From the IMG/VR virus record IMGVR_UViG_3300029305_004466: a stretch of DNA of 64,000 bases; one strand, written 5' to 3'. The notes under the pieces are model-generated. The model saw nothing but the letters and a program-made list of their open reading frames with translations. It searched no databases and was not told the DNA's origin. The translations under genes were made by a program, and so were the position numbers. Positions 13,337-24,059 of the stretch are shown here, piece by piece. This stretch comes from a virus. Its lineage: Duplodnaviria > Caudoviricetes. The first letter of the stretch is position 1, and every line of letters starts with the position of its first letter.

Positions 13337-14004
13337 TACATATTGTATGTTAAGAAACATACATGAATAACCATGTGCATAAGATATCTAATCAATATCG
13401 TCATGGATAAGCCGTATGATAGAGAGAATCATGTGACTGATAGGTTGCATAGATGCTCCTTGTATTAGTAGTAATGTTAATACAGAAGAGGGGAACCCCT
13501 CAACATCAAGGTTTAGTGTATGTTTATACTGTTTGTTAGTGCAGAATGCTTTTGGCAGGAGCAATAGACGCTTACCCGAAAGGTAAGAAGAATCCATTAA
13601 AGCGGTAGCCTGAGAAACTATCACACCTAATGGAACTCTCAAACAATCCTGTTTGTCGTGAATGGAAGAAATTCCAGTATAACAAAAGCATCGCTGGTAG
13701 TAGCCCAAGACAATAAAAGATTTTATTTAATGAAAAAGTGAATCATATAAATAAAAACATTCTGAATGATGGGTGAGGCTTGGAGGTATCAGTCCTCTAT
13801 GAGTTTAAGGTTATAGCTAAGTATGACGAGTATGAGATGCCCTTCGAGGAGCATGTGATACCGCATGGCTGGTTGGCTAGGGTAAGAAGCTTACAGATGA
13901 CGATTTGTAGGTTCAGACTTATTCTCTCATTCGCATAATAAGCATAAGGTATAAACAATAGGATGAAGGTCCATTCTTGTATGTTTCTTAGGGTACAATA
14001 TGTA
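13337..14004 (+). ncRNA. large structured ncRNA, ROOL-like
   Basis: ~670 nt with no credible ORF; 13337-13363 pairs with 13978-14004; follows a promoter and precedes the tRNA cluster. Confidence 0.55.
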
Positions 14005-14156: not shown

Positions 14157-14228
<72 letters not shown>

Positions 14229-14543
14229 TTATCCTCTTAGTAACTTTGCAGAGTTATCTAAGAAAAAGACATAATTAAAGTCTTAGTAAAGTCCTGCAAG
14301 ACTGAAAAGACAATGACAACAACCTTGTGTCTTAGTGGTTCTAATTTGGTTGTAGATGTCAAAGGATTCTGTATCATGATGTGCTGACCTACCAATTTGT
14401 AGGGCTATGATGAGAAGTCTATAGTGGGACTCCTTCTCCAAGTCAGGCTATGTGCAGATGGTAAAAGAGTTGAACCTCACCTAACAGTTGCAGTTTGGCA
14501 GTTTGAATGGCAGCAGGGTGTTAATTAAGAAAAAACTGTCAAT

Positions 14544-14615
14544 GGCTCCTTGGTCAAGTGGTTAAGACATCGCCCTTTCACGGCGGTAACGCTGGTTCAA
14601 ACCCAGTAGGAGTCA
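14544..14615 (+). tRNA. tRNA-Glu(TTC)
   Basis: cloverleaf, loop CTTTCAC. Confidence 0.9.
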
Positions 14616-14730
14616 TTTGGAGAAGAGGTAGGTAAGGTGGCAGGGATGGTTCCCATTGTGTTAGCAGTCGGTCAGAACGCTTTGACGGCAGTACCGCAGC
14701 TTAAAAATCAGTTTAGCTTCTCCAATACAT

Positions 14731-14804
14731 AGCGGGGTGGAGCAGTCCGGAAGCTCGTCAGGCTCATAACCTGAAGGTCGCAAGTTCAAATCTTGCCCCC
14801 GCCT
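14731..14804 (+). tRNA. tRNA-Met(CAT), initiator-like
   Basis: GCGGGGTGGAGCAG 5' end, mismatched 1:72 pair, loop CTCATAA. Confidence 0.88.
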
Positions 14805-14881
14805 CTGTAAGTTAATCCATTGACTTACACCTCACCTTATACCGCAGGCGTTCTTTGTAGCTTTCTCCTGCGGTATATAAT

Positions 14882-14967
14882 GGTAAGATGTCCGAGTGGC
14901 TTAAGGAGCTGGTCTTGAAAACCAGTGATGCGTAACTGCACCGTGAGTTCGAATCTCACTCTTACCG
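14882..14967 (+). tRNA. tRNA-Ser(TGA)
   Basis: long variable arm, loop CTTGAAA. Confidence 0.9.
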
Positions 14968-15182
14968 TTCTAAGTTCGAAAGGTCTTAGTTAAAAAACCT
15001 TAAACGTAAGGATTACAGAGGGCTATGGGTTGACGACCATAGAGCTTACGTTGTGAGAAAACCACAGGTGGCTAATCTGCTTTGTTCTATTAGCATGGAA
15101 AAATAGGAGAGTTAATTGAGCAATTTGTCTCACACAATATTGCTTAGGGCGGCAACCTCATGTCAAAGAAATAGCCAAACAC

Positions 15183-15268
15183 GGAGATTTACTCAAGTGG
15201 TTGAAGAGGAGGACTTGCTAAGTCTTTAGTATCGTAAGGTAGCGAAGGTTCGAATCCTTCAATCTCCG
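15183..15268 (+). tRNA. tRNA-Ser(GCT)
   Basis: long variable arm, loop TTGCTAA. Confidence 0.88.
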
Positions 15269-15514
15269 CTGAGCTGAGGTGCTAGAACTCAACTCTATGT
15301 AATAGACACACCTGTAAAAGATGTTTTGAGATTTAAGACTTCTTTTTGAAAGAAGCCACTGAATCAAAGTACATATCTACCTTGACCAGCTAGGTACGAC
15401 ATCAGTAGGAGGAAGTTACATAGATATGTTGGCAGTACGAAGAACTGTCTGCTTGGAAAATGAAGAATGATGGTCATTCCCGTTTCTACCATTTCTGTAC
15501 GTTAACAGAATTAA

Positions 15515-15588
15515 CGAGATGTAGGTCAGCTTGGTAGACCGCTTGATTTGGGTTCAAGAAGTCGCACGTTCGAATCGTGTCATCTCGA
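15515..15588 (+). tRNA. tRNA-Pro(TGG)
   Basis: cloverleaf, loop TTTGGGT. Confidence 0.88.
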
Positions 15589-16182
15589 CTAGCCAGAACA
15601 GAAGACATTTCGAGTTCGGCAAGAAAAAACTACATAGTCTTCATTAAGAAAGGAGGAATGGTATATGATTATTATTGTTGGCGGATTGCTGTGTTGTATG
15701 CTGTTCTTCCTTGAAGAACGTGTAGGCACAATTACTATTATGAATGGAGTGCCAGAGATTAGTCTAACAGCGGTTAAGTGGCTTTTGAGGTTTAGTCACA
15801 TAAATTCTAACTACTGGCATCCTGAGCCCAGAGTGCTCACGACAGCTTTTGTAGGCGGATTTATATGAATAATGACCTCAAAGAAACCTACTACATTGTT
15901 GAAGTGAGCGTTTAATTATAGAATATAGAATATAAACTAAATTAACAGTCAACACCGACATTATGGCAGTGTCACAGTGAAGAAGGAAAACTTATAAAAC
16001 CCGTTAAGATATTAATCCCCACATATGATAAATTAGGGATTGTTCACTTAAATGGTTAGAAAGAAAGAATAAAATATGTTGACAAAGAGAGACGGCTTAA
16101 TGCCATTAAGCCATAGAACGAATAGAATGAATATTATGTAAACCGCCCCGGTCCCGGTTATGATGTCGGGGCGGTATTTTTT

Positions 16183-16294
16183 GGGACGATAGTTTAATTG
16201 GAAAAATACTGGCATTAGCAATAGCCCGGGATTGCTAGAGACGGAGTTGGAACACCGTATCACCAGAGACAGGAGTTCAATTCTCCGAGTCCCA
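16183..16294 (+). ncRNA. tRNA-like RNA with ~50 nt two-hairpin insert replacing the anticodon loop
   Basis: D-arm, CTGG/CCAG stem, GGAGTTCAATTCTCC T-arm, partial acceptor stem. Confidence 0.55.
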
Positions 16295-16610
16295 CTTTCT
16301 CTTTCTGGGTTCCTGAATAGGAGTAGGCACTCATAATGCTTAGAATTCCTTTGTAAGAGAATATTAAAACTTCCATTATTGATACTGAGTATATTGTAAA
16401 CCTTGTTAATTGATGGACGAGGAGCAATTGTTATCTTTATCAATACAAAACCGATTTGATTCGGATAGGTAAATTGCCGAGGCAAGGTAAGTTATTAGTT
16501 TTGGTAGTCTAATAATAAAGAAGATGTGCTAAGAACAAGGATGGCGGTTGCATGATTAGCCATGGACAATGATTATGCAATGAGGCAGCAAATCGGTCTT
16601 AGCGACCTAT

Positions 16611-16684
16611 GGACCTTTAGCTCAGTTGGTTAGAGCGTCCGGCTCATAACCGGATGGTCGTAGGTTCGAGCCCTACAAGGTCCA
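16611..16684 (+). tRNA. tRNA-Ile2/Met(CAT)
   Basis: GGACCTTTAGCTCAG...AGGTCCA resembles Firmicute Ile2 (lysidine) tRNA; loop CTCATAA. Confidence 0.88.
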
Positions 16685-16890
16685 CTATACCGAGGGATGG
16701 TAGACTGATATAACAGTGGATGACAGCAAAGTTTCGTCTGTCGAAGGGATAGGGGCAATACATGTTACCGCCTATCGTGTAGGTATAATATTACAAAGTG
16801 TATTCGAATGAGTATTCTGTTTAACGGAAGAAAGTCAATCTTAAATGTGAAATATCTATTGACGAGGATATAGTAACAGCTTTGTACTGT

Positions 16891-16960
16891 AGGACATTAG
16901 CTTAATGGTAAAGCACACGACTGATAATCGTGGTCAGCAGTTCGATTCTGTTATGTTCTA
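16891..16960 (+). tRNA. tRNA-Ile(GAT)
   Basis: CACGA-CTGATAA-TCGTG anticodon arm; short variable loop. Confidence 0.78.
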
Positions 16961-17108
16961 TTCGGTGAAAAGCTGATAGATTACTGTCGATAGGGAGGCA
17001 GTTGCCCAGTGAAGGTAGCCGCCAGCTAACGCAGAGTAAATATGAGTATGGAGAACAAGTCCCCTATGATTTGCCATAAGCATACGAAATGGTTAGCTGG
17101 ATTAACCT

Positions 17109-17201
17109 CGGAGAGTAGCTCAGTGGGCAGAGCTTCTTGCTTAGAATGGGTAACTGCAAGTGAAATCCCGTTGGTCATGAGTTCGAATCTCATCTCTCCG
17201 T
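17109..17201 (+). ncRNA. tRNA-like RNA with a possible pseudoknot in place of the anticodon arm
   Basis: perfect acceptor, D and T arms; middle segment has CTTGC/GCAAG and AATGGG/CCCGTT pairings. Confidence 0.6.
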
Positions 17202-17323
17202 CTTTGTAAAGGTAAGTTATGGATGCATAATACTAGGATGAAAGGACTTAACTTTAAATGTCAATCTTCAAAACAGTAAGCGACAGCCTTTACAAAATTG
17301 TATCTTGAAAGGAACATATTTTT

Positions 17324-17548
17324 ATGAATGTTGCATTTGCATCAAAAATTGCTAATCTTATTAAAACTGGTCATTATTGGTCATATGCACATATTGCTGA
17401 AGAGTTGCATATAAATAAAAACACAGTAGCTCGTATTGGGAAAATTTATAAAGATGCCCGATGGAGCATTTATAGTGTTGACCAATTAGCACAGAAGCAT
17501 CACGTTAGCAAAAATGTTATTCGGGCTATTCGTGGTACTAAAGTCTGA
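17324..17548 (+). CDS. small HTH-like protein
   Basis: SYAHIAEELHINKNTVARI and SVDQLAQKHHVSKNVIRAI; GAAAGGA RBS. Confidence 0.65.
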   Translation: MNVAFASKIANLIKTGHYWSYAHIAEELHINKNTVARIGKIYKDARWSIYSVDQLAQKHHVSKNVIRAIRGTKV

Positions 17549-18158
17549 AAAAGTGACACATAATTATTCACAAAAGGGTGAATAACTAATGTTTATTAGT
17601 TTGAAACGGGTTCAAATCCTGATGTGTCACCTCAAGGGGCGATATATGAAAAAAGGTTTACTAAATCGCAAAGGGGCGGTTTTACTGCGGTAATAACTTT
17701 AATCATAATCACAGCTCCCGTGGGATAGATGGCTAAGGGATAGCTAAATCCCAATAGCAGGTTCCAATCGCAAGTTGTCCTGCCAAAAACCAAAAGGTTA
17801 TTGTGATAAGTATCATTTGTATGGAAACATACATGTGAGAAAAAACATCAGTGCTTGACATGCCAAAATACAAGCTGAATGAAGGTTGGTAAATGTATAC
17901 GCCAAAATACATAAGAGGTATATAAATATTAAAATAAATTGGATAATATTCATGATAAAACCGATTTAATATGTGAATTAACACAAGCAGTATATGTACC
18001 CGTTTGTCCAGTGAAGAATGAAGTATGTAACAAGTTGCATATACCATTGGATAGATTCAACCTTCAAGGTTGCCGTGAGACAAAAAGTAGGTATTTAGTA
18101 TGCAAAAGATATCAATGGCACGATAAATGAGTGAAATTCTCATCACTGATGTCAACTT

Positions 18159-18266
18159 GGAGAATTAGCTCAGTTGGCTAGAGCCCTACGAGGAGTTTCG
18201 ATTGGGTGAGCAATATGCTCCTAGACACCAGAAGAAACAGCCCCAGTTCGAATCTGGGATTCTCCA
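18159..18266 (+). ncRNA. tRNA-like RNA with expanded anticodon region
   Basis: GGAGAAT/ATTCTCC acceptor, canonical D-arm, CCCAG-TTCGAAT-CTGGG T-arm, ~55 nt middle. Confidence 0.6.
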
Positions 18267-18631
18267 ATATGACGTTTTAGGGTTTGGGCTCTTACGTAGA
18301 GTTGTTGTCAAATACCCTCATCGCTTCTTATCAGGCGGAAAGAAAACGGGACAACAAGTAGAGGGGGCTGATAATCTCTTCGAAAGTACCGAATATCATT
18401 GATTCTAACAATTGCTAATGTTGCATGAAGCGTGTGCTTCTCTAGCTTCCAACTAGGGCTTAGCCGCTTATAGAATCACAAATGAATGAGTGTGGAAAAC
18501 TCAGGTAGGTGTAACCCCTACTATTCGGTTTGGAAGCATATACCCATTGTGCTTCTTGCCATTATGTGTAAGCCTTTTTTCGGCTAAAGAGAAGGAAACT
18601 CTTAAAAACCAAATTATAGCATTATACATCA

Positions 18632-18661
18632 TTGACACATTTTGTTGCAGTGGTGTATAAT
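18632..18661 (+). promoter_or_regulatory. sigma-A-type promoter within an inverted repeat
   Basis: TTGACA-18-TATAAT. Confidence 0.65.
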
Positions 18662-18971
18662 GCTATTAGTTTTTATGGGAAGGAAACCCTATAATAAACC
18701 GTTAAGAAATTTTCATGTGGATATTTAAAACAAGAGCATGAAGGAGTCGGCATGGTAGCGAAAAAAGCCGAAAGCCTGTCTAATTTCACTTAAATGAAAG
18801 AAAGAAAAGACGAAAGGAAACCTCTACCAATCCCAGTCTAATATTTTGCAAAGGTATAAACTGAACCTGTTATCTATATATCCTAACATCTATACATTAG
18901 GTTTAAGTCGGGCCTGCATTAAAGTAGTCATTAAGTATAGAAATGTTTAAAACTACTGTATTGGACAACTT

Positions 18972-19102
18972 GCCGGAATATGCAAGCGGGTTGCAAGCAG
19001 CTATTTTTTAATAGTGAGTGAAACACATGAGTATAACTTGTGCTGTGACTGTCCTATGTGGGAGTAGGACATTAAAAGGGAGTTCGAATCTTCTATCCGG
19101 CA
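18972..19102 (+). ncRNA. degenerate tRNA-like RNA with large insertion
   Basis: GCCGGA/TCCGGC acceptor and GTTCGAATC T-loop. Confidence 0.45.
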
Positions 19103-19136
19103 CTTACATAATCTTATGGAAAGGAGAAAAATCACT

Positions 19137-19415
19137 ATGAACAAGACTGAATTAGTTAAGGTTATTGCTGATACTCAGGGTATTGCAGTGAAAGATGCTG
19201 AAAAGGCTATTAATGGCTTCATGGAAGTTGTTAAGACCGAAGTAGCAAAAGGCAATCCTGTACAGTTAGTTGGTTTTGGTACATTTACTGTAAGTAAACG
19301 TGCTGAAAAGACTGGTATCAATCCTCAGACTAAGGAAAAGATGGTTATTCCTGCTTGCAATGCACCTAAATTCAAAGCTGGCGAAAAGTTTAAGCAGATG
19401 GTTAAAGAAGCATAA
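19137..19415 (+). CDS. hup: HU family DNA-binding protein
   Basis: MNKTELV..., VQLVGFGTF, RAEKTGINPQT, PKFKAG. Confidence 0.95.
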   Translation: MNKTELVKVIADTQGIAVKDAEKAINGFMEVVKTEVAKGNPVQLVGFGTFTVSKRAEKTGINPQTKEKMVIPACNAPKFKAGEKFKQMVKEA

Positions 19416-19494
19416 TTTCCGGTAGTTAGCGGTGGACGTTTTTACTTTTCTATTTTCATCATCGCTTTATAAAACAAGGACAAGATAGATAGTT

Positions 19495-19569
19495 GTATGT
19501 GTAAGCTCAGTTGGGAGAGCTGGGGCGGAGAACCCGCCTTGTGCGAAGGTTCGAGTCCTTCCATGTGCA
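19495..19569 (+). tRNA. atypical/pseudo tRNA (noncanonical anticodon loop)
   Basis: D and T arms canonical; anticodon loop lacks U33. Confidence 0.5.
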
Positions 19570-19697
19570 ATATTAGCCACTGGTATTATTTTAAATGTAA
19601 CCTAATAACCATTTTAAAAATCTTTGGTAGGCTACATAATCACACCTAACCACAATACTTAATGCCAGTGGTTACTTAAAAAAGGAGGAATTCAAAA

Positions 19698-19856
19698 ATG
19701 AACAGAAACAGAAAGTTAAGCACAGCTACCTATGGACCAAGACACGTACAGCCACACAACCCTTATTCTATGGCTACAAAGTCAGGTATGAAGAAGATGC
19801 ACACAGATAAGACTCGTGGCGGTAATCCTGATGGTAGAGCAAACAGAGATATGTAA
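19698..19856 (+). CDS. small basic protein (52 aa)
   Basis: AGGAGG RBS, ATG 19698, TAA 19854-19856. Confidence 0.6.
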   Translation: MNRNRKLSTATYGPRHVQPHNPYSMATKSGMKKMHTDKTRGGNPDGRANRDM

Positions 19857-19884
19857 TTACATAGCAGGTCTATGACCTGCAAAT

Positions 19885-19957
19885 GGGTCACTAGCTCAGT
19901 AGGTAGAGCACTAGACTTTTAATCTAGGTGTCACGGGTTCGAACCCCGTGTGGCTCA
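19885..19957 (+). tRNA. tRNA-Lys(TTT)
   Basis: cloverleaf, loop CTTTTAA. Confidence 0.9.
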
Positions 19958-20042
19958 CTAGCCCCTTCGGGGCATTAATAGTAACTATTAATAGACGGGT
20001 TTACCGTCTTTTTTATTGGTTTTACAGAAAGGAAAGAGTATA

Positions 20043-20516
20043 ATGGAAAAAACAAAAGAATTGTGTAGCAAGATATACATGCATTGGTTCTTAGAAGAAA
20101 TGAAAGACCCCAAAATGCCTTACAAAGAAATTGATGAGGAATTTCTACAGAACTCTTTTATCACAAAGATTCTTCTTACAAAATTTAAATCGTTTGATGT
20201 TGATATTCATTTACCAATGCCTCTGTTAGCATTATTATCATTGTGTACAGATGAAAATCCGGGCATGTCTCAAATCATTCTTAAGGATTTACTTAATAGC
20301 ATTAAATCACGCATGGGAGCTATACCAAAAGGCTACGTTATTACGTCTACAGATTTTGCTTTTTGTTTCCCAAATAGTTTCCCTATAATTGCTAACGAGC
20401 AAATTTATGAGAAGTATATTAAATTATGGGATGGACAAAAACGTGAAAGACCAAATGAAATGGCAAGTGATAACTTGTGTGACACACCTGAATGGTGGAA
20501 AGAGGTTATGCAATGA
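20043..20516 (+). CDS. hypothetical protein
   Basis: GAAAGGA RBS before ATG 20043. Confidence 0.7.
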   Translation: MEKTKELCSKIYMHWFLEEMKDPKMPYKEIDEEFLQNSFITKILLTKFKSFDVDIHLPMPLLALLSLCTDENPGMSQIILKDLLNSIKSRMGAIPKGYVITSTDFAFCFPNSFPIIANEQIYEKYIKLWDGQKRERPNEMASDNLCDTPEWWKEVMQ

Positions 20517-20698
20517 AAAGAAAAGTAAACAGGTTTTTTAAGGCATTGTTGGCGGGGACAGCTGTTTTTGCAATAGCTACAACATTCGCATTACTTATTA
20601 GCTATTTTGTTAAGAACTCTTCAGCGATAGGCATCTTAGGAGTGATATTCATTCTTGTATTGGTAGTCGGTTATGCCTTAACTTCAGACCTGCCTTAA
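20513..20698 (+). CDS. small membrane protein (2 TM)
   Basis: two hydrophobic segments; ATGA overlap with upstream gene. Confidence 0.65.
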   Translation: MKRKVNRFFKALLAGTAVFAIATTFALLISYFVKNSSAIGILGVIFILVLVVGYALTSDLP

Positions 20699-20836
20699 AT
20701 AAAAAGGAGGAAAAGAGTATGAAAAAGAAGGATAAGAAACGCAAATGGAGTAATCGTGATAACATATTTGTTATTACAGCTATAATAATCCTGATAATTT
20801 CGACTGCACTAATTATTATACGTTAGGAGAAAAAAC

Positions 20837-21343
20837 ATGGCGATAATGGGTGAATGGATTCCGCATTGTGGATTCAAATCAAAAGCTGATGCTCACAAAG
20901 TAGCGTTAGAGCTTGAAAGCATCGGATATGATAATGGCACCGATGAATTTAATACACAAGAAATTGTAGATTTTGCACGTAATAATCCCACTTGTGAAAT
21001 TCATAAGTTATTAGAATGGGACGATAAAATAGCTGCTGAAGCTCATCGTAATGAGCAAGCGAGAGAGATTCTTCGTTTTCTTAAAATCACTGTTGTAACA
21101 ACACAGGAAGACAATCCAGTATTTCAGCCAACAAAAGTAAGATACTTTGTTAATACTGGTAAACATGATGGAACATATAAGAAAACTGAAGTCGTATTCC
21201 AGAATGCTAGTGAAGCAGACAGAATTATGGAAGGTATGAGGCGTGATGCTGAGAATTTTATTAACAGATATCAGATTTATGCTCATCTTAATCCGAATAT
21301 TCCTGCTGCTATTCAGGCATTACAAGCAGTAATCAATCCTTAA
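20837..21343 (+). CDS. conserved phage protein (EWDD..AAE..R..QAR family), putative accessory of the adjacent RAMP system
   Basis: IVDFARNNPTCEIHKLLEWDDKIAAEAHRNEQAREIL; abuts the pentamer array. Confidence 0.75.
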   Translation: MAIMGEWIPHCGFKSKADAHKVALELESIGYDNGTDEFNTQEIVDFARNNPTCEIHKLLEWDDKIAAEAHRNEQAREILRFLKITVVTTQEDNPVFQPTKVRYFVNTGKHDGTYKKTEVVFQNASEADRIMEGMRRDAENFINRYQIYAHLNPNIPAAIQALQAVINP

Positions 21344-21357
21344 TAAGTTGATGTTTT

Positions 21358-21952
21358 CTCTTGCATATATATTGGCTTAAATGCCAATGACAATAAGGCA
21401 ATTCATTGCACATAATTTCATAACAGGACAGCACAAAATACGTCAACATAGGCTAAGACATGTTAGCTCACATGGCTCTTTTGAGCCAATATATATGTAA
21501 GAGAGGACAGGACAACTCAGTGCATTTTACCACAATGAATGACAATCTATAACATGACAGAGGGGCGAGGACACTCGCCCCATTTTTATAAGTATAAATA
21601 TTGGCTTTAATTAGTCAATGAATATATTACAATACAAATGCACGATAGCTTAATACTGAACAGAATAGCATAATGCATGATACAATAAAACACATGGCTC
21701 TTAGAGCCTTTATTTATGCTTATAAATAGTAGGATTATGAATACATATATTGGCTTTAATGGTCAATGAAAACAAAATAAGTAAGCTGATTATTGTACAG
21801 AACAGCCCAGCCCACTACAAAACAGTACAGGACAAAACAAATGGCTCTTAGAGCCTTTATATGTGTTCATAAACACAAGCACAAAGACAGCAGAATACAT
21901 GTCAGTGCAACATAGGATATTACAAAACATTTAAATCCTATCAAAAGATAGG
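21358..21952 (+). ncRNA. array of structured guide-like RNAs containing five pentamer (NN+NYA) repeat tracts
   Basis: three cassettes (21358-21503, 21586-21725, 21735-21872), each outer stem + ATTGGC hairpin + CAATGA + 14-16 pentamers + ATGGCTCTT..GAGCC hairpin; extra tracts at 21505-21559 and 21873-21929. Confidence 0.85.
21562..21587 (+). terminator. intrinsic terminator within the array
   Basis: GGGGCGAG/CTCGCCCC stem + ATTTTT. Confidence 0.7.
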
Positions 21953-21970
21953 TAGAAGGAGACACACATT

Positions 21971-22645
21971 ATGGCAACAAAGAAAAACACAACCCCAGAA
22001 GTACAGGTAGTAGAAACTGAATTACAGAATAAGATTCGTTTCGCTACAGCAACAATCACCATTCAGGGTGATAGCGATTTAATTCTTAACAAGATGAGAG
22101 ACAGTACTACACAGCAGCTTGCAGATAAGCAGGAAGGTAAAGTACAGGGTACTAAGGCTCCTGTTAATATGTATGAGCATCTTGTTGGTTCTATTCACTG
22201 GTTAAAGGGTGAAGAAACTAACTATACAGAAGAAGGATGGAAAAATGCATTAGCAAACAATACTCCGGGTTATCCATCTTCTGGTTTAAAGAAAGCTCTT
22301 TGCGATGCAGTTGTTCGTGTATTAGGTGAAACATATAGCACGAAATTTAATGCAAATATGCAGATTCTTGATAGTTTCCTGCCGATTAAGTTTGCGGCAA
22401 GCACATATGATAAGTCTTTATTTAGTCCACAGAAGGGCAGTCCTGTCCTTTGTTACAGAAATGTATTCAAAGACTGGGAAACAACTTTCACAATCAAGTA
22501 CATTCCAGATAACTATTCTCTGGACCAGATTCTTGAAGTTATCAATTGTGCAGGCTTTGCATGTGGTATTGGTAGCCACAGACCATCTAGTAAGGGCGGT
22601 TCCAATGGTATGTTCCATGTAGCAAAGGTTGTAGAAATGGTATAG
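21971..22645 (+). CDS. stand-alone RAMP/Cas7-like RNA-binding protein
   Basis: N-terminal beta strand (ATITIQGDSDL), PGYPSSGLKKAL (compare RAMP IPGSSLKGAL), C-terminal glycine-rich loop GFACGIGSHRPSSKGGSNGMFHV. Confidence 0.8.
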   Translation: MATKKNTTPEVQVVETELQNKIRFATATITIQGDSDLILNKMRDSTTQQLADKQEGKVQGTKAPVNMYEHLVGSIHWLKGEETNYTEEGWKNALANNTPGYPSSGLKKALCDAVVRVLGETYSTKFNANMQILDSFLPIKFAASTYDKSLFSPQKGSPVLCYRNVFKDWETTFTIKYIPDNYSLDQILEVINCAGFACGIGSHRPSSKGGSNGMFHVAKVVEMV

Positions 22646-22652
22646 GTGTTTT

Positions 22653-23111
22653 ATGGCTGATTCAAAGAAAAGATTATATTCAAGAGAAACCATTAACAAG
22701 CATTACAGCGATTTTATTGAACAGGTAAAAACTTATAATGAAAAAGGCTTTCCTGATAAAATACTTGATGTTGTTATTTTTGGTTCGTACATTAATACAA
22801 ACAACCCTAAAATGCACGACTTGGATATAGGAATAAGATTTGAAAAACATCCAGAACTGTATGAGGATTACAAAAAGAAAATGTCAAAAGAGCAATTGGA
22901 GAAATATGCAAACAGATGTTTTTTGGACAGATTAGTAATACCTCATACAGAGGAAATTAGATTTTTAAAAGCAAAGCATGGAACTATTTCTCTATATGAT
23001 ATTGATTATGACAAAGAATATATCTTTAATGATAAACATTTGTACATAGTAAAAAATGGCGAGCTAATAGAAGATGCATTACCTATTCCTTTGAATTTGC
23101 AAACCAAATAA
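22653..23111 (+). CDS. minimal nucleotidyltransferase (Pol-beta superfamily)
   Basis: VVIFGSY...DLDIGI motif. Confidence 0.8.
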   Translation: MADSKKRLYSRETINKHYSDFIEQVKTYNEKGFPDKILDVVIFGSYINTNNPKMHDLDIGIRFEKHPELYEDYKKKMSKEQLEKYANRCFLDRLVIPHTEEIRFLKAKHGTISLYDIDYDKEYIFNDKHLYIVKNGELIEDALPIPLNLQTK

Positions 23112-23119
23112 GGTGAAAA

Positions 23120-23332
23120 ATGATGAGTATTAACAAAAACCGTTATATAGGAAAAAAGATAGGTTTTTATTACGACAGTAAAAAAGCCGTACATGAAGTA
23201 GAAGCTATTATAAAAGACGTAAGTATTTTAGGTATACTGGTAAGAGTTACCAAAAGTAGTAATGTATTTTACAATGTAAGCAACCAGTATCTTATTCCGC
23301 TAAATGCAAGTTTTGTATACAAATTCTTATAA
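23120..23332 (+). CDS. hypothetical protein
   Basis: AAGGTG RBS. Confidence 0.6.
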   Translation: MMSINKNRYIGKKIGFYYDSKKAVHEVEAIIKDVSILGILVRVTKSSNVFYNVSNQYLIPLNASFVYKFL

Positions 23333-23342
23333 GGAGGTACAT

Positions 23343-23591
23343 ATGTCACCGATTGAAATTCAGGAAATCACAAACAGAGTAAATGCTATGACTGAAGAAG
23401 AACAGGTTTTAGTCGCTTCTCTGTTACCTGTACAGCTTATGTTAGATGCAATTAATGCTAAGTATAACGCTGTTGCAGATGAATTAGATGAAATGAACGA
23501 ACTCATGAGAATTAAGAATAACCAGATTACAAGAGCAGCAGGTACTACAAGAACACTTACACATGTTCTTAATGAAATAGCGGCTGGTTAA
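23343..23591 (+). CDS. hypothetical protein
   Basis: AAGGAGG RBS before ATG 23343. Confidence 0.7.
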   Translation: MSPIEIQEITNRVNAMTEEEQVLVASLLPVQLMLDAINAKYNAVADELDEMNELMRIKNNQITRAAGTTRTLTHVLNEIAAG

Positions 23592-23598
23592 ATTTCTG

Positions 23599-23627
23599 TT
23601 GACACAAAATGTTACAAGCATTATAAT
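23599..23627 (+). promoter_or_regulatory. consensus sigma-A promoter with ACAAAATGTTACA operator in the spacer
   Basis: TTGACA-17-TATAAT. Confidence 0.8.
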
Positions 23628-23858
23628 GTCATTATCCTTAATATGAGTTCATGAATTGGTTACTGTAATGCTCAGTATTAAATCATGGTTGCCTCTCGAT
23701 TGGCATTAAAAGGTCAGCCATAGCCAAAAACATTTCTACCTATCAGGTGGGTTAGGGGATTATCCCCGCTTACTAAAAAACTTTTGTACGCTGGAAGTTC
23801 CGTAGGGGTGTCTGTTAGCTTAGGGCGAAACAGAGGGTAGTTTATAAAGCGTACACCT

Positions 23859-23931
23859 TGGGCTATCGCCAAGCGGTAAGGCACAGCACTTTGACTGCTG
23901 CATTTCGTTGGTTCAAATCCAACTAGCCCAG
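23859..23931 (+). tRNA. tRNA-Gln(TTG)
   Basis: TGGGCTA/TAGCCCA acceptor, loop CTTTGAC. Confidence 0.9.
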
Positions 23932-24059
23932 TTCGAGATGAAAATCTCGCAGAAACCTTTATTATGTTGTTTGTTGATTAATAATATAATTCGTGTTTCT
24001 ACTTCCTTTCTGGCAGGGGCGTGTATAACGCCCCAATTTTATTATATGGAGGACATATC

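Follow-up and report, generated by a model that had tools for sequence, protein, structure and literature searches.

In the 64,000-nucleotide stretch of viral DNA analysed here (IMG/VR record IMGVR_UViG_3300029305_004466, Duplodnaviria, Caudoviricetes; hereafter the window), the intergenic region between two genes holds a series of tracts built of five-nucleotide units. The gene directly upstream of this array (20837-21343, + strand) encodes a protein of 168 amino acids (aa) and is called here the accessory, or vap-like, gene. The gene just downstream of it (21971-22645, + strand) encodes a 224-aa single-domain RAMP (Cas7-like) protein and is called vipr-like. All pentamer tracts, both those enclosed in stem-closed cassettes and the open ones, lie on the + strand between these two genes. 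We focus on the first of them, guide 1 (21391-21470, + strand), a candidate guide of a VIPR (Viral Interference Programmable Repeat) system.

Guide 1 is made of 16 pentamers of the form NN-N-Y-A (where Y is a pyrimidine), set head to tail over 80 bases: CAATA AGGCA ATTCA TTGCA CATAA TTTCA TAACA GGACA GCACA AAATA CGTCA ACATA GGCTA AGACA TGTTA GCTCA. The fifth position of the unit is A in all 16 pentamers and the fourth is a pyrimidine in 15 of them, while the third is mixed; the base content around the tract is 36% A. The pentamer array was not detected by Tandem Repeats Finder, and a search of Rfam over 21300-21980 returned no family at the gathering threshold or at E values up to 10, with matches at noise level only. 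A preliminary description of this DNA, made from the letters alone, had listed the first two bases of each unit (NN below) and read them as codon positions 1 and 2 of a phage DNA polymerase A motif, with every third target base being skipped. The list proved to be exact, and the motif was recovered in 159 in-frame matches, to a gene assigned to PF00476.

These matches were obtained with the pattern AT.TT.CA.TT.TA.GG.GC.AA.CG.AC.GG.AG.TG.GC, in which the NN pairs of pentamers 3-16 are separated by single free bases (28 specified bases) and which was searched for in IMG/VR and in prokaryote contigs with one genome per species. It occurs, without any mismatch, in 104 viral contigs of IMG/VR and in 55 genomes of prokaryotes, a number that is far above chance by a rough estimate from the sizes of the collections (<<1 expected). 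Each of the 159 matches is in frame and in sense orientation and translates as MFQFYGANRTGRWA, ILQFYGANRTGRWA or MLQFYGANRTGRWA. The NN of units 3-16 thus correspond to codon positions 1-2 of (M/I)(F/L)QFYGANRTGRWA in family-A DNA polymerase genes, and the skipped base is codon position 3 (the wobble position) in every match. The first two NN of guide 1 (CA and AG) mismatch most targets; in nine targets, however, CA is present at the first unit, which raises the agreement to 31 of 32 bases. One of the target genes (L006:6608-8563) was assigned to PF00476 at 4e-25 and also to phrog_17, and Streptococcus Javan prophages encode a 'DNA polymerase I' about 94% identical to the target polymerase. 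The targeted polymerases are encoded by temperate phages and prophages of Bacillota, in agreement with the earlier proposal that the polymerase of a competitor is recognised. The 55 prokaryote matches come mostly from Lachnospiraceae, Oscillospiraceae and other Clostridia, with Streptococcus infantis, Brevibacillus and Oceanobacillus in addition.

The match depends on the length of the gap. When the NN of guide 1 were spaced by no nucleotide or by two, there was no match in IMG/VR, as compared with 104 for the one-nucleotide gap, and four other gapped patterns of 20-24 specified bases, taken as a control, gave no IMG/VR match either. Permuting the order of the NN lowered the best score on the target loci to 22 of 32 bases, which leaves the in-frame polymerase matches of the real guide far above such controls. 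The third pentamer base had been described as not following the code, and indeed the position-3 bases of guide 1 (TGTTAAAATACAT) do not track the consensus wobble bases of the targets (GCGCCTCCCCCAG). The 159 matches represent 99 distinct 41-mers, so that one guide spans 99 distinct targets whose skipped positions are only about half identical (mean identity 53%), and the commonest contiguous 41-mer occurs five times. Because the wobble bases of the targets are so diverse, a contiguous guide would cover only a few percent of the range of the gapped one. Resistance to escape by synonymous changes, which had been suggested for this guide, is therefore apparent at the sequence level. No self-target had been evident in the window, and we found none for guide 1 there at up to three mismatches, nor did any guide score above permuted controls anywhere in the window. 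Nor is a family-A polymerase encoded by either of two complete relatives of this phage, one of 213 kb and the other of 208 kb with terminal repeats.

Guide 1 forms the loop of a folded element, vrRNA cassette 1 (21358-21503, + strand), in which a closing stem of about 24 bp encloses a 5' hairpin (21372-21387), the guide tract and a 3' hairpin (21474-21487). The stem arms are 30 nucleotides (nt) long and 87% complementary, and the fold reaches -47.8 kcal/mol (z -7.5). Two further cassettes with a closing stem follow on the same strand, namely cassette 2 (21583-21728, guide at 21622-21692, fold z -5.0) and cassette 3 (21733-21875, guide of 14 pentamers at 21770-21839, fold z -5.4). Cassette 1 thus carries 16 pentamer units and cassette 3 carries 14, and the 14 units of cassette 2 are divided as 3 + 11 by a slip, as one extra base after the third pentamer shifts the register by 1 nt inside a single loop. 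The 3' hairpin of cassette 2 and the T-run that accompanies it resemble a terminator. Among close relatives the cassette loops are hypervariable while the scaffold is conserved. Throughout the family, 75% of the tracts have a flank duplex stronger than -20 kcal/mol and 67% have a z below -3; the median for the flank duplex is -33 kcal/mol, whereas shuffled flanks give -15.5, and the sequence of the stem varies from locus to locus.

The guide of cassette 3 behaves like guide 1. It had no exact match in IMG/VR, but it matched four metagenome contigs exactly, in sense orientation and in the reading frame, at 14 of 14 NN (28 of 28 bases), with two of the 14 NN lying outside the search pattern and matching nonetheless; permuted controls reached 19 of 28 bases at most. 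The target encodes KKRALVDAALNVGN in a phage protein of 295-300 aa, which belongs to phrog_10048 and gives a weak C-terminal match to GemA. As the targeted gene adjoins a RecE-like exonuclease gene (phrog_434) in one of these contigs (L241), it would seem to be part of a recombination module. A gene for an anti-restriction-like protein (phrog_7245) also stands beside the targeted gene on this contig (L241:1330-3146).

The same kind of array is found in related loci. Pentamer tracts were present upstream of the vipr-like gene, on the same strand, in 7 of 10 sampled related loci, and a logo was built from 169 unique tracts of 81 loci, which had been detected by positions 4 and 5 of the unit and not by position 3. 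In this logo the NN positions have an entropy of 1.92-1.96 bits, and the remaining bases are A in 79% of the units at position 3, a pyrimidine in 94% at position 4 and A in 96% at position 5. The commonest triplets are ACA (54%), ATA (17%) and GCA (8%), and G is the consensus at no fixed position. The handle of the family is AYA, and its tracts are 9-22 units long, mostly 10-16. All 169 guides were then scored against polymerase-bearing loci. Three of them, from loci whose Vipr-like protein is 42-44% identical to that of the window, decode in frame to conserved polymerase motifs: one to QFYGANRTGRWAG, which is the guide 1 site shifted by two codons (23 of 26 bases), another to ADFSAIEARVIAWFA (28 of 30 bases) and the third to MGALDMGLS (18 of 18 bases). 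That guides of such distant lineages decode to polymerase motifs points to an independent convergence on one gene family.

The 224-aa product of the vipr-like gene has no match in Pfam, PADLOC or NCBIfam. Its AlphaFold2 (AF2) model, with a mean predicted local distance difference test (pLDDT) score of 85.4, has top Foldseek matches that are all Csm3, Cmr4 or Cas7 (best E 4.8e-7, probability 1.0), and VIA gave a Z of 11.2 to Cmr4. In sequence, BLASTP aligned the protein with Vipr of Escherichia phage SUSP1 (195 aa, L240:28474-29061) at E 5e-10, 34% of the residues being identical along a 47-residue stretch that takes in the G-loop, and when the family profile was compared with SUSP1 Vipr by hhalign, the probability was 96.6%. 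The similarity to the experimentally characterised Vipr is therefore one of sequence, beyond the shared fold. The G-loop itself reads GVGDWRP in SUSP1 and GIGSHRP here, with a family consensus of GIGSGR. In the SUSP1 sequence we also found GGY/NN arrays on both sides of the two-gene block that holds the Vipr gene.

The accessory gene is conserved as well: of 80 related loci in IMG/VR, 78 carry a homologue of it upstream of their array. Its 168-aa product belongs to a sole family of unassigned function, phrog_15946, and has no match in Pfam, PADLOC or NCBIfam. In the AF2 model (pLDDT 78), the likeness of residues 14-120 to winged-helix domains is weak (Z 5.3-6.2, within noise); a helical hairpin comes after them at the C-terminus. 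Foldseek returned nothing for this protein at E < 1, VIA Z values were 6.3 at most, within noise, and comparison with vap1 of SUSP1 detected no similarity (hhalign probability 0.5%).

Systems of this kind are already known, having been published in 2026 as VIPR. In VIPR, the RAMP protein Vipr binds vrRNAs that consist of 9-16 pentamers, each made up of a GGY and a variable NN, and the resulting ribonucleoprotein (RNP) recognises double-stranded DNA by a 1-nt skip rule, with the skip mostly at the codon wobble, and silences competing mobile elements (10.64898/2026.04.26.720920). The skip rule, the wobble skip and transcriptional silencing were demonstrated by experiments on SUSP1 VIPR (10.64898/2026.04.26.720920), its filament and an R-loop triplex were described structurally (cryo-EM, i.e. 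cryo-electron microscopy, preprint), and the codon periodicity has been found to block escape (10.64898/2026.10.15.759431). The discovery paper counts 664-667 loci and gives NNNGG, YNNNG and NNNNG as handle variants, all of them containing G (10.64898/2026.04.26.720920).

The window system shares with VIPR a RAMP protein related to Vipr, a pentamer vrRNA on the vipr strand in flanking intergenic DNA, the 1-nt skip, the alignment of this skip with the wobble position in genes of rival elements without a self-target, and a conserved accessory gene. In being phage-borne, and in having just one accessory gene beside its single-domain RAMP gene, with arrays on the flanks, it is closest to the type II VIPR of phage SUSP1 and of a P. 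fulva prophage (10.64898/2026.04.26.720920, 10.64898/2026.04.26.720927). The arrays of the latter two are made of RNAs of about 100 nt, each a series of 9-16 pentamers that combine a fixed trinucleotide with hypervariable NN, and they have their counterpart here, as do the skip at the wobble of coding sequences of rival mobile elements, the lack of a self-target and the C-terminal G-loop region. There are also differences. The handle here is AYA, and neither GGY nor one of the described G-variants. The SUSP1 vrRNA ends in a pseudoknotted tail, whereas here a stem of about 24 bp and small 5' and 3' hairpins enclose the guide. The accessory protein is unrelated to SUSP1 vap1, the hosts of the system are Bacillota phages of about 37-90 kb (many of these contigs being possibly fragments) and of about 210 kb, and the guides are directed at polymerase and recombination genes in temperate phages instead of at satellite or lysogeny genes. 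The window system is thus a variant lineage of VIPR with its own handle, RNA scaffold, accessory protein and target class. Taking all of this together, we consider it highly probable that the tract described here is the guide part of a vrRNA of a non-canonical VIPR system on a phage of about 210 kb, and that this guide, by fitting a wobble-skipped polymerase motif, serves to silence a rival.

In the mechanism that we propose by analogy with SUSP1, one Vipr-like RAMP protomer would occupy each pentamer, sequestering the A-Y-A triplet and presenting the two variable bases. Since the 14-16 presented dinucleotides have the sequence of the coding strand, their partner in double-stranded DNA would be the template strand, in a gapped R-loop with one target base skipped after each pair, at the codon wobble position. 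In this way guide 1 could fit the conserved MFQFYGANRTGRWA motif in the polymerase of temperate Bacillota phages whatever synonymous codons are used there, and its binding would silence or block the polymerase gene and thereby disable a competing or resident phage. As the locus has no nuclease, repression appears likelier than cleavage. The long perfect stems around the guides are probably processing sites, perhaps for RNase III, at which, as we conjecture, single vrRNAs are released.

Several observations do not sit easily with this assignment. The AYA handle has no position in common with GGY. The sequence match to SUSP1 Vipr is limited to about 62 C-terminal columns, and the residues that read guanine in SUSP1 are not conserved. 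There, the contacts to the two guanines are made by D177 and W178 of the G-loop and by H17, and R179 and R138 also contact the handle (cryo-EM preprint). In the window protein D177 and W178 are replaced by S202 and H203, and H17 by the nearly invariant N40, the last by a manual alignment only. Moreover, all five decoded guides are sense-oriented, while SUSP1 targets lie on both strands, albeit the sample is small and its members are not independent. Neither the guide of cassette 2 (11 NN after the slip) nor the open tracts described below had an exact gapped target in IMG/VR. Finally, for the window system we infer expression, processing, RNP formation, DNA binding and silencing alike. On the other hand, the handle-contacting arginines are kept (R204 and R163 here, for R179 and R138), and the replacement of the guanine readers would fit a changed handle specificity.

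One may also imagine that the recognition is the same but its outcome is different, i.e. that the RNP, by recruiting the 168-aa protein or a nuclease of the host, tags the polymerase gene for degradation or stops replication, an outcome that has been suggested for VIPR types III-V. VIPR types associated with a nuclease or a helicase have been reported (10.64898/2026.04.26.720920), the targets are replication and recombination genes, and the 168-aa protein, conserved as it is in 78 of 80 loci, is of no known fold class. However, searches of Pfam, PADLOC and NCBIfam and fold searches detected neither a nuclease nor a helicase motif in the two conserved proteins, and the weak resemblance of the 168-aa protein to winged-helix DNA binders is reminiscent of the repressor-type VIPR types II, VI and VII. 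We thus regard such an outcome as improbable and favour silencing by a DNA-bound VIPR complex.

Two open pentamer tracts, which lack a closing stem, bear on another explanation. Tract 1 (about 21495-21559, + strand) is followed by a strong intrinsic terminator (21562-21590, + strand), and tract 2 (21885-21934, + strand) lies in the leader of the vipr-like gene, with a small hairpin and a ribosome-binding site after it. Unlike the cassette loops, both are conserved in the close relatives L105 and L106, including their NN, with tract 1 being nearly identical. Across the window, the polymerase loci and the target loci of cassette 3, neither tract scored better than permuted controls. When 21505-21559 was read as an antisense of motif X of C5-methyltransferases, the pattern (Thr or Ala, one mismatch) was not found in 5 + 301 Lachnospiraceae-centred genomes. 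These tracts may be guides to a conserved target outside the sequences sampled here, or they may be Vipr-binding elements in the vipr leader. In many contigs of about 37-90 kb (L109-L184; see also L108:2867-2926) a single open tract of 12 units stands just upstream of the vipr-like gene, with NN that are largely conserved between loci, for instance between L108 and L162. Such loci may be a minimal form of the system.

It is in view of these open tracts that a pentamer tract could be taken for nothing more than a protein-binding scaffold, like the GAG repeats bound by TRAP, with no guide role and a fortuitous polymerase match: the A-Y-A periodicity would by itself fit an oligomeric RNA-binding protein, and two tracts are conserved down to their NN with no target found. 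This explanation does not agree with an exact gapped match of 28 bases that occurs 159 times in one frame of one gene family, beyond chance and with no match in the controls, nor with the second guide (cassette 3) and the three guides of distant loci, which behave in the same way. We therefore give it hardly any weight; as judged by the match statistics, it is refuted for guide 1 and survives for the two conserved open tracts only. Action on the polymerase mRNA, be it as an antisense-type regulator or as an RNA-targeting RAMP complex like type III CRISPR, might be suggested by the closest solved folds, the RNA-targeting Csm3 and Cmr4, and by the pairing of SUSP1 VIPR with single-stranded RNA in vitro (cryo-EM preprint), but it is extremely unlikely, since guide 1, guide 3 and the three guides of relatives share the polarity of the mRNA, so that the template strand of the DNA and an antisense transcript are the only possible partners for pairing.

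Returning to the silencing VIPR system, we may ask how far it has diverged from the known ones. The chances seem to us about evenly balanced that it represents a hitherto uncharacterised, orthogonal VIPR lineage, in which an AYA handle is read by a re-tooled G-loop (with S-H or S-G where SUSP1 has D-W), stem-closed cassettes are cut by a double-strand RNase, the accessory protein is the lineage's own, and the whole has become specialised, across many Bacillota phages, in silencing catalytic motifs of replication and recombination genes of temperate rivals. The central rule could be read from raw sequence alone, yet the principle is no longer new, as it was published in 2026. What is added is a lineage that keeps the two-of-three gapped code with a handle that has no base in common with GGY, which is computational evidence for a 1-nt-skip code that is independent of GGY. 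As the code is kept despite the AYA handle, it looks like a property of the filament geometry and not of guanine recognition. If the lineage is truly orthogonal, this would be the first evidence of a 1-nt-skip code independent of handle chemistry, and should the AYA-reading protein ignore GGY RNAs and vice versa, two programmable silencers could be used side by side. The escape-proof logic is also well exemplified here, with several unrelated loci converging on catalytic motifs of one polymerase family across Bacillota prophages.

Arrays with other handles have been reported recently. A preprint on a genomic language model describes 21 clusters with, for example, GAC/NN, CAC/NN, WGT/NN or TGH/NN beside Vipr-like folds, which were reoriented computationally, the study's own check being only about 80% consistent (10.64898/2026.10.21.760802). 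Like the array described here, these clusters combine a period of five, a fixed triplet other than GGY and a Vipr-like fold alongside; the text mentions neither an AYA nor an ACA motif, and it reports neither targets nor a test of the skip rule for these clusters (10.64898/2026.10.21.760802). Nevertheless, the AYA family may be among the 21 clusters, because TGH/NN is the reverse complement of DCA/NN and the strand assignment may be unreliable for some of the clusters.

The RAMP fold is also shared with backbone subunits of class 1 CRISPR-Cas (Cas7, Csm3, Cmr4), and from this fold, together with the SUSP1 structures, we infer a periodic guide-RNA filament with bases flipped out at fixed intervals. 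Unlike in class 1 CRISPR-Cas, the period is 5 nt with two pairing bases, as opposed to 6 nt with five, and the guides are hard-wired and not acquired as spacers. Around the locus there is no repeat array with a period of 30 or more, and the neighbouring open reading frames have no match to a Cas family in Pfam, PHROG, PADLOC or NCBIfam.

The vipr-like gene is directly followed by a gene for a 152-aa nucleotidyltransferase (22653-23108; PF01909, with weak MntA-antitoxin-like and PADLOC PDC-S09 matches). It was considered as a component of the system and rejected, being present in 0 of 80 related loci. With the accessory gene kept in 78 of the 80, the system consists of the accessory gene, the vrRNA array and vipr. 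A blastn search of 20000-24000 against GenBank phages matched over a tRNA-sized stretch only. Eleven Rfam tRNA genes are spread on the + strand over 14157-23931, one of them (23859-23931) shortly downstream of the VIPR locus; such a number fits a large phage genome, the complete relatives being of 208-213 kb. A full-length ROOL RNA (13347-13991; RF03087, 305 bits) lies just upstream of the tRNA gene cluster, and a gene for an HU-family DNA-binding protein (PF00216 at 1e-29) is located at 19116-19415.
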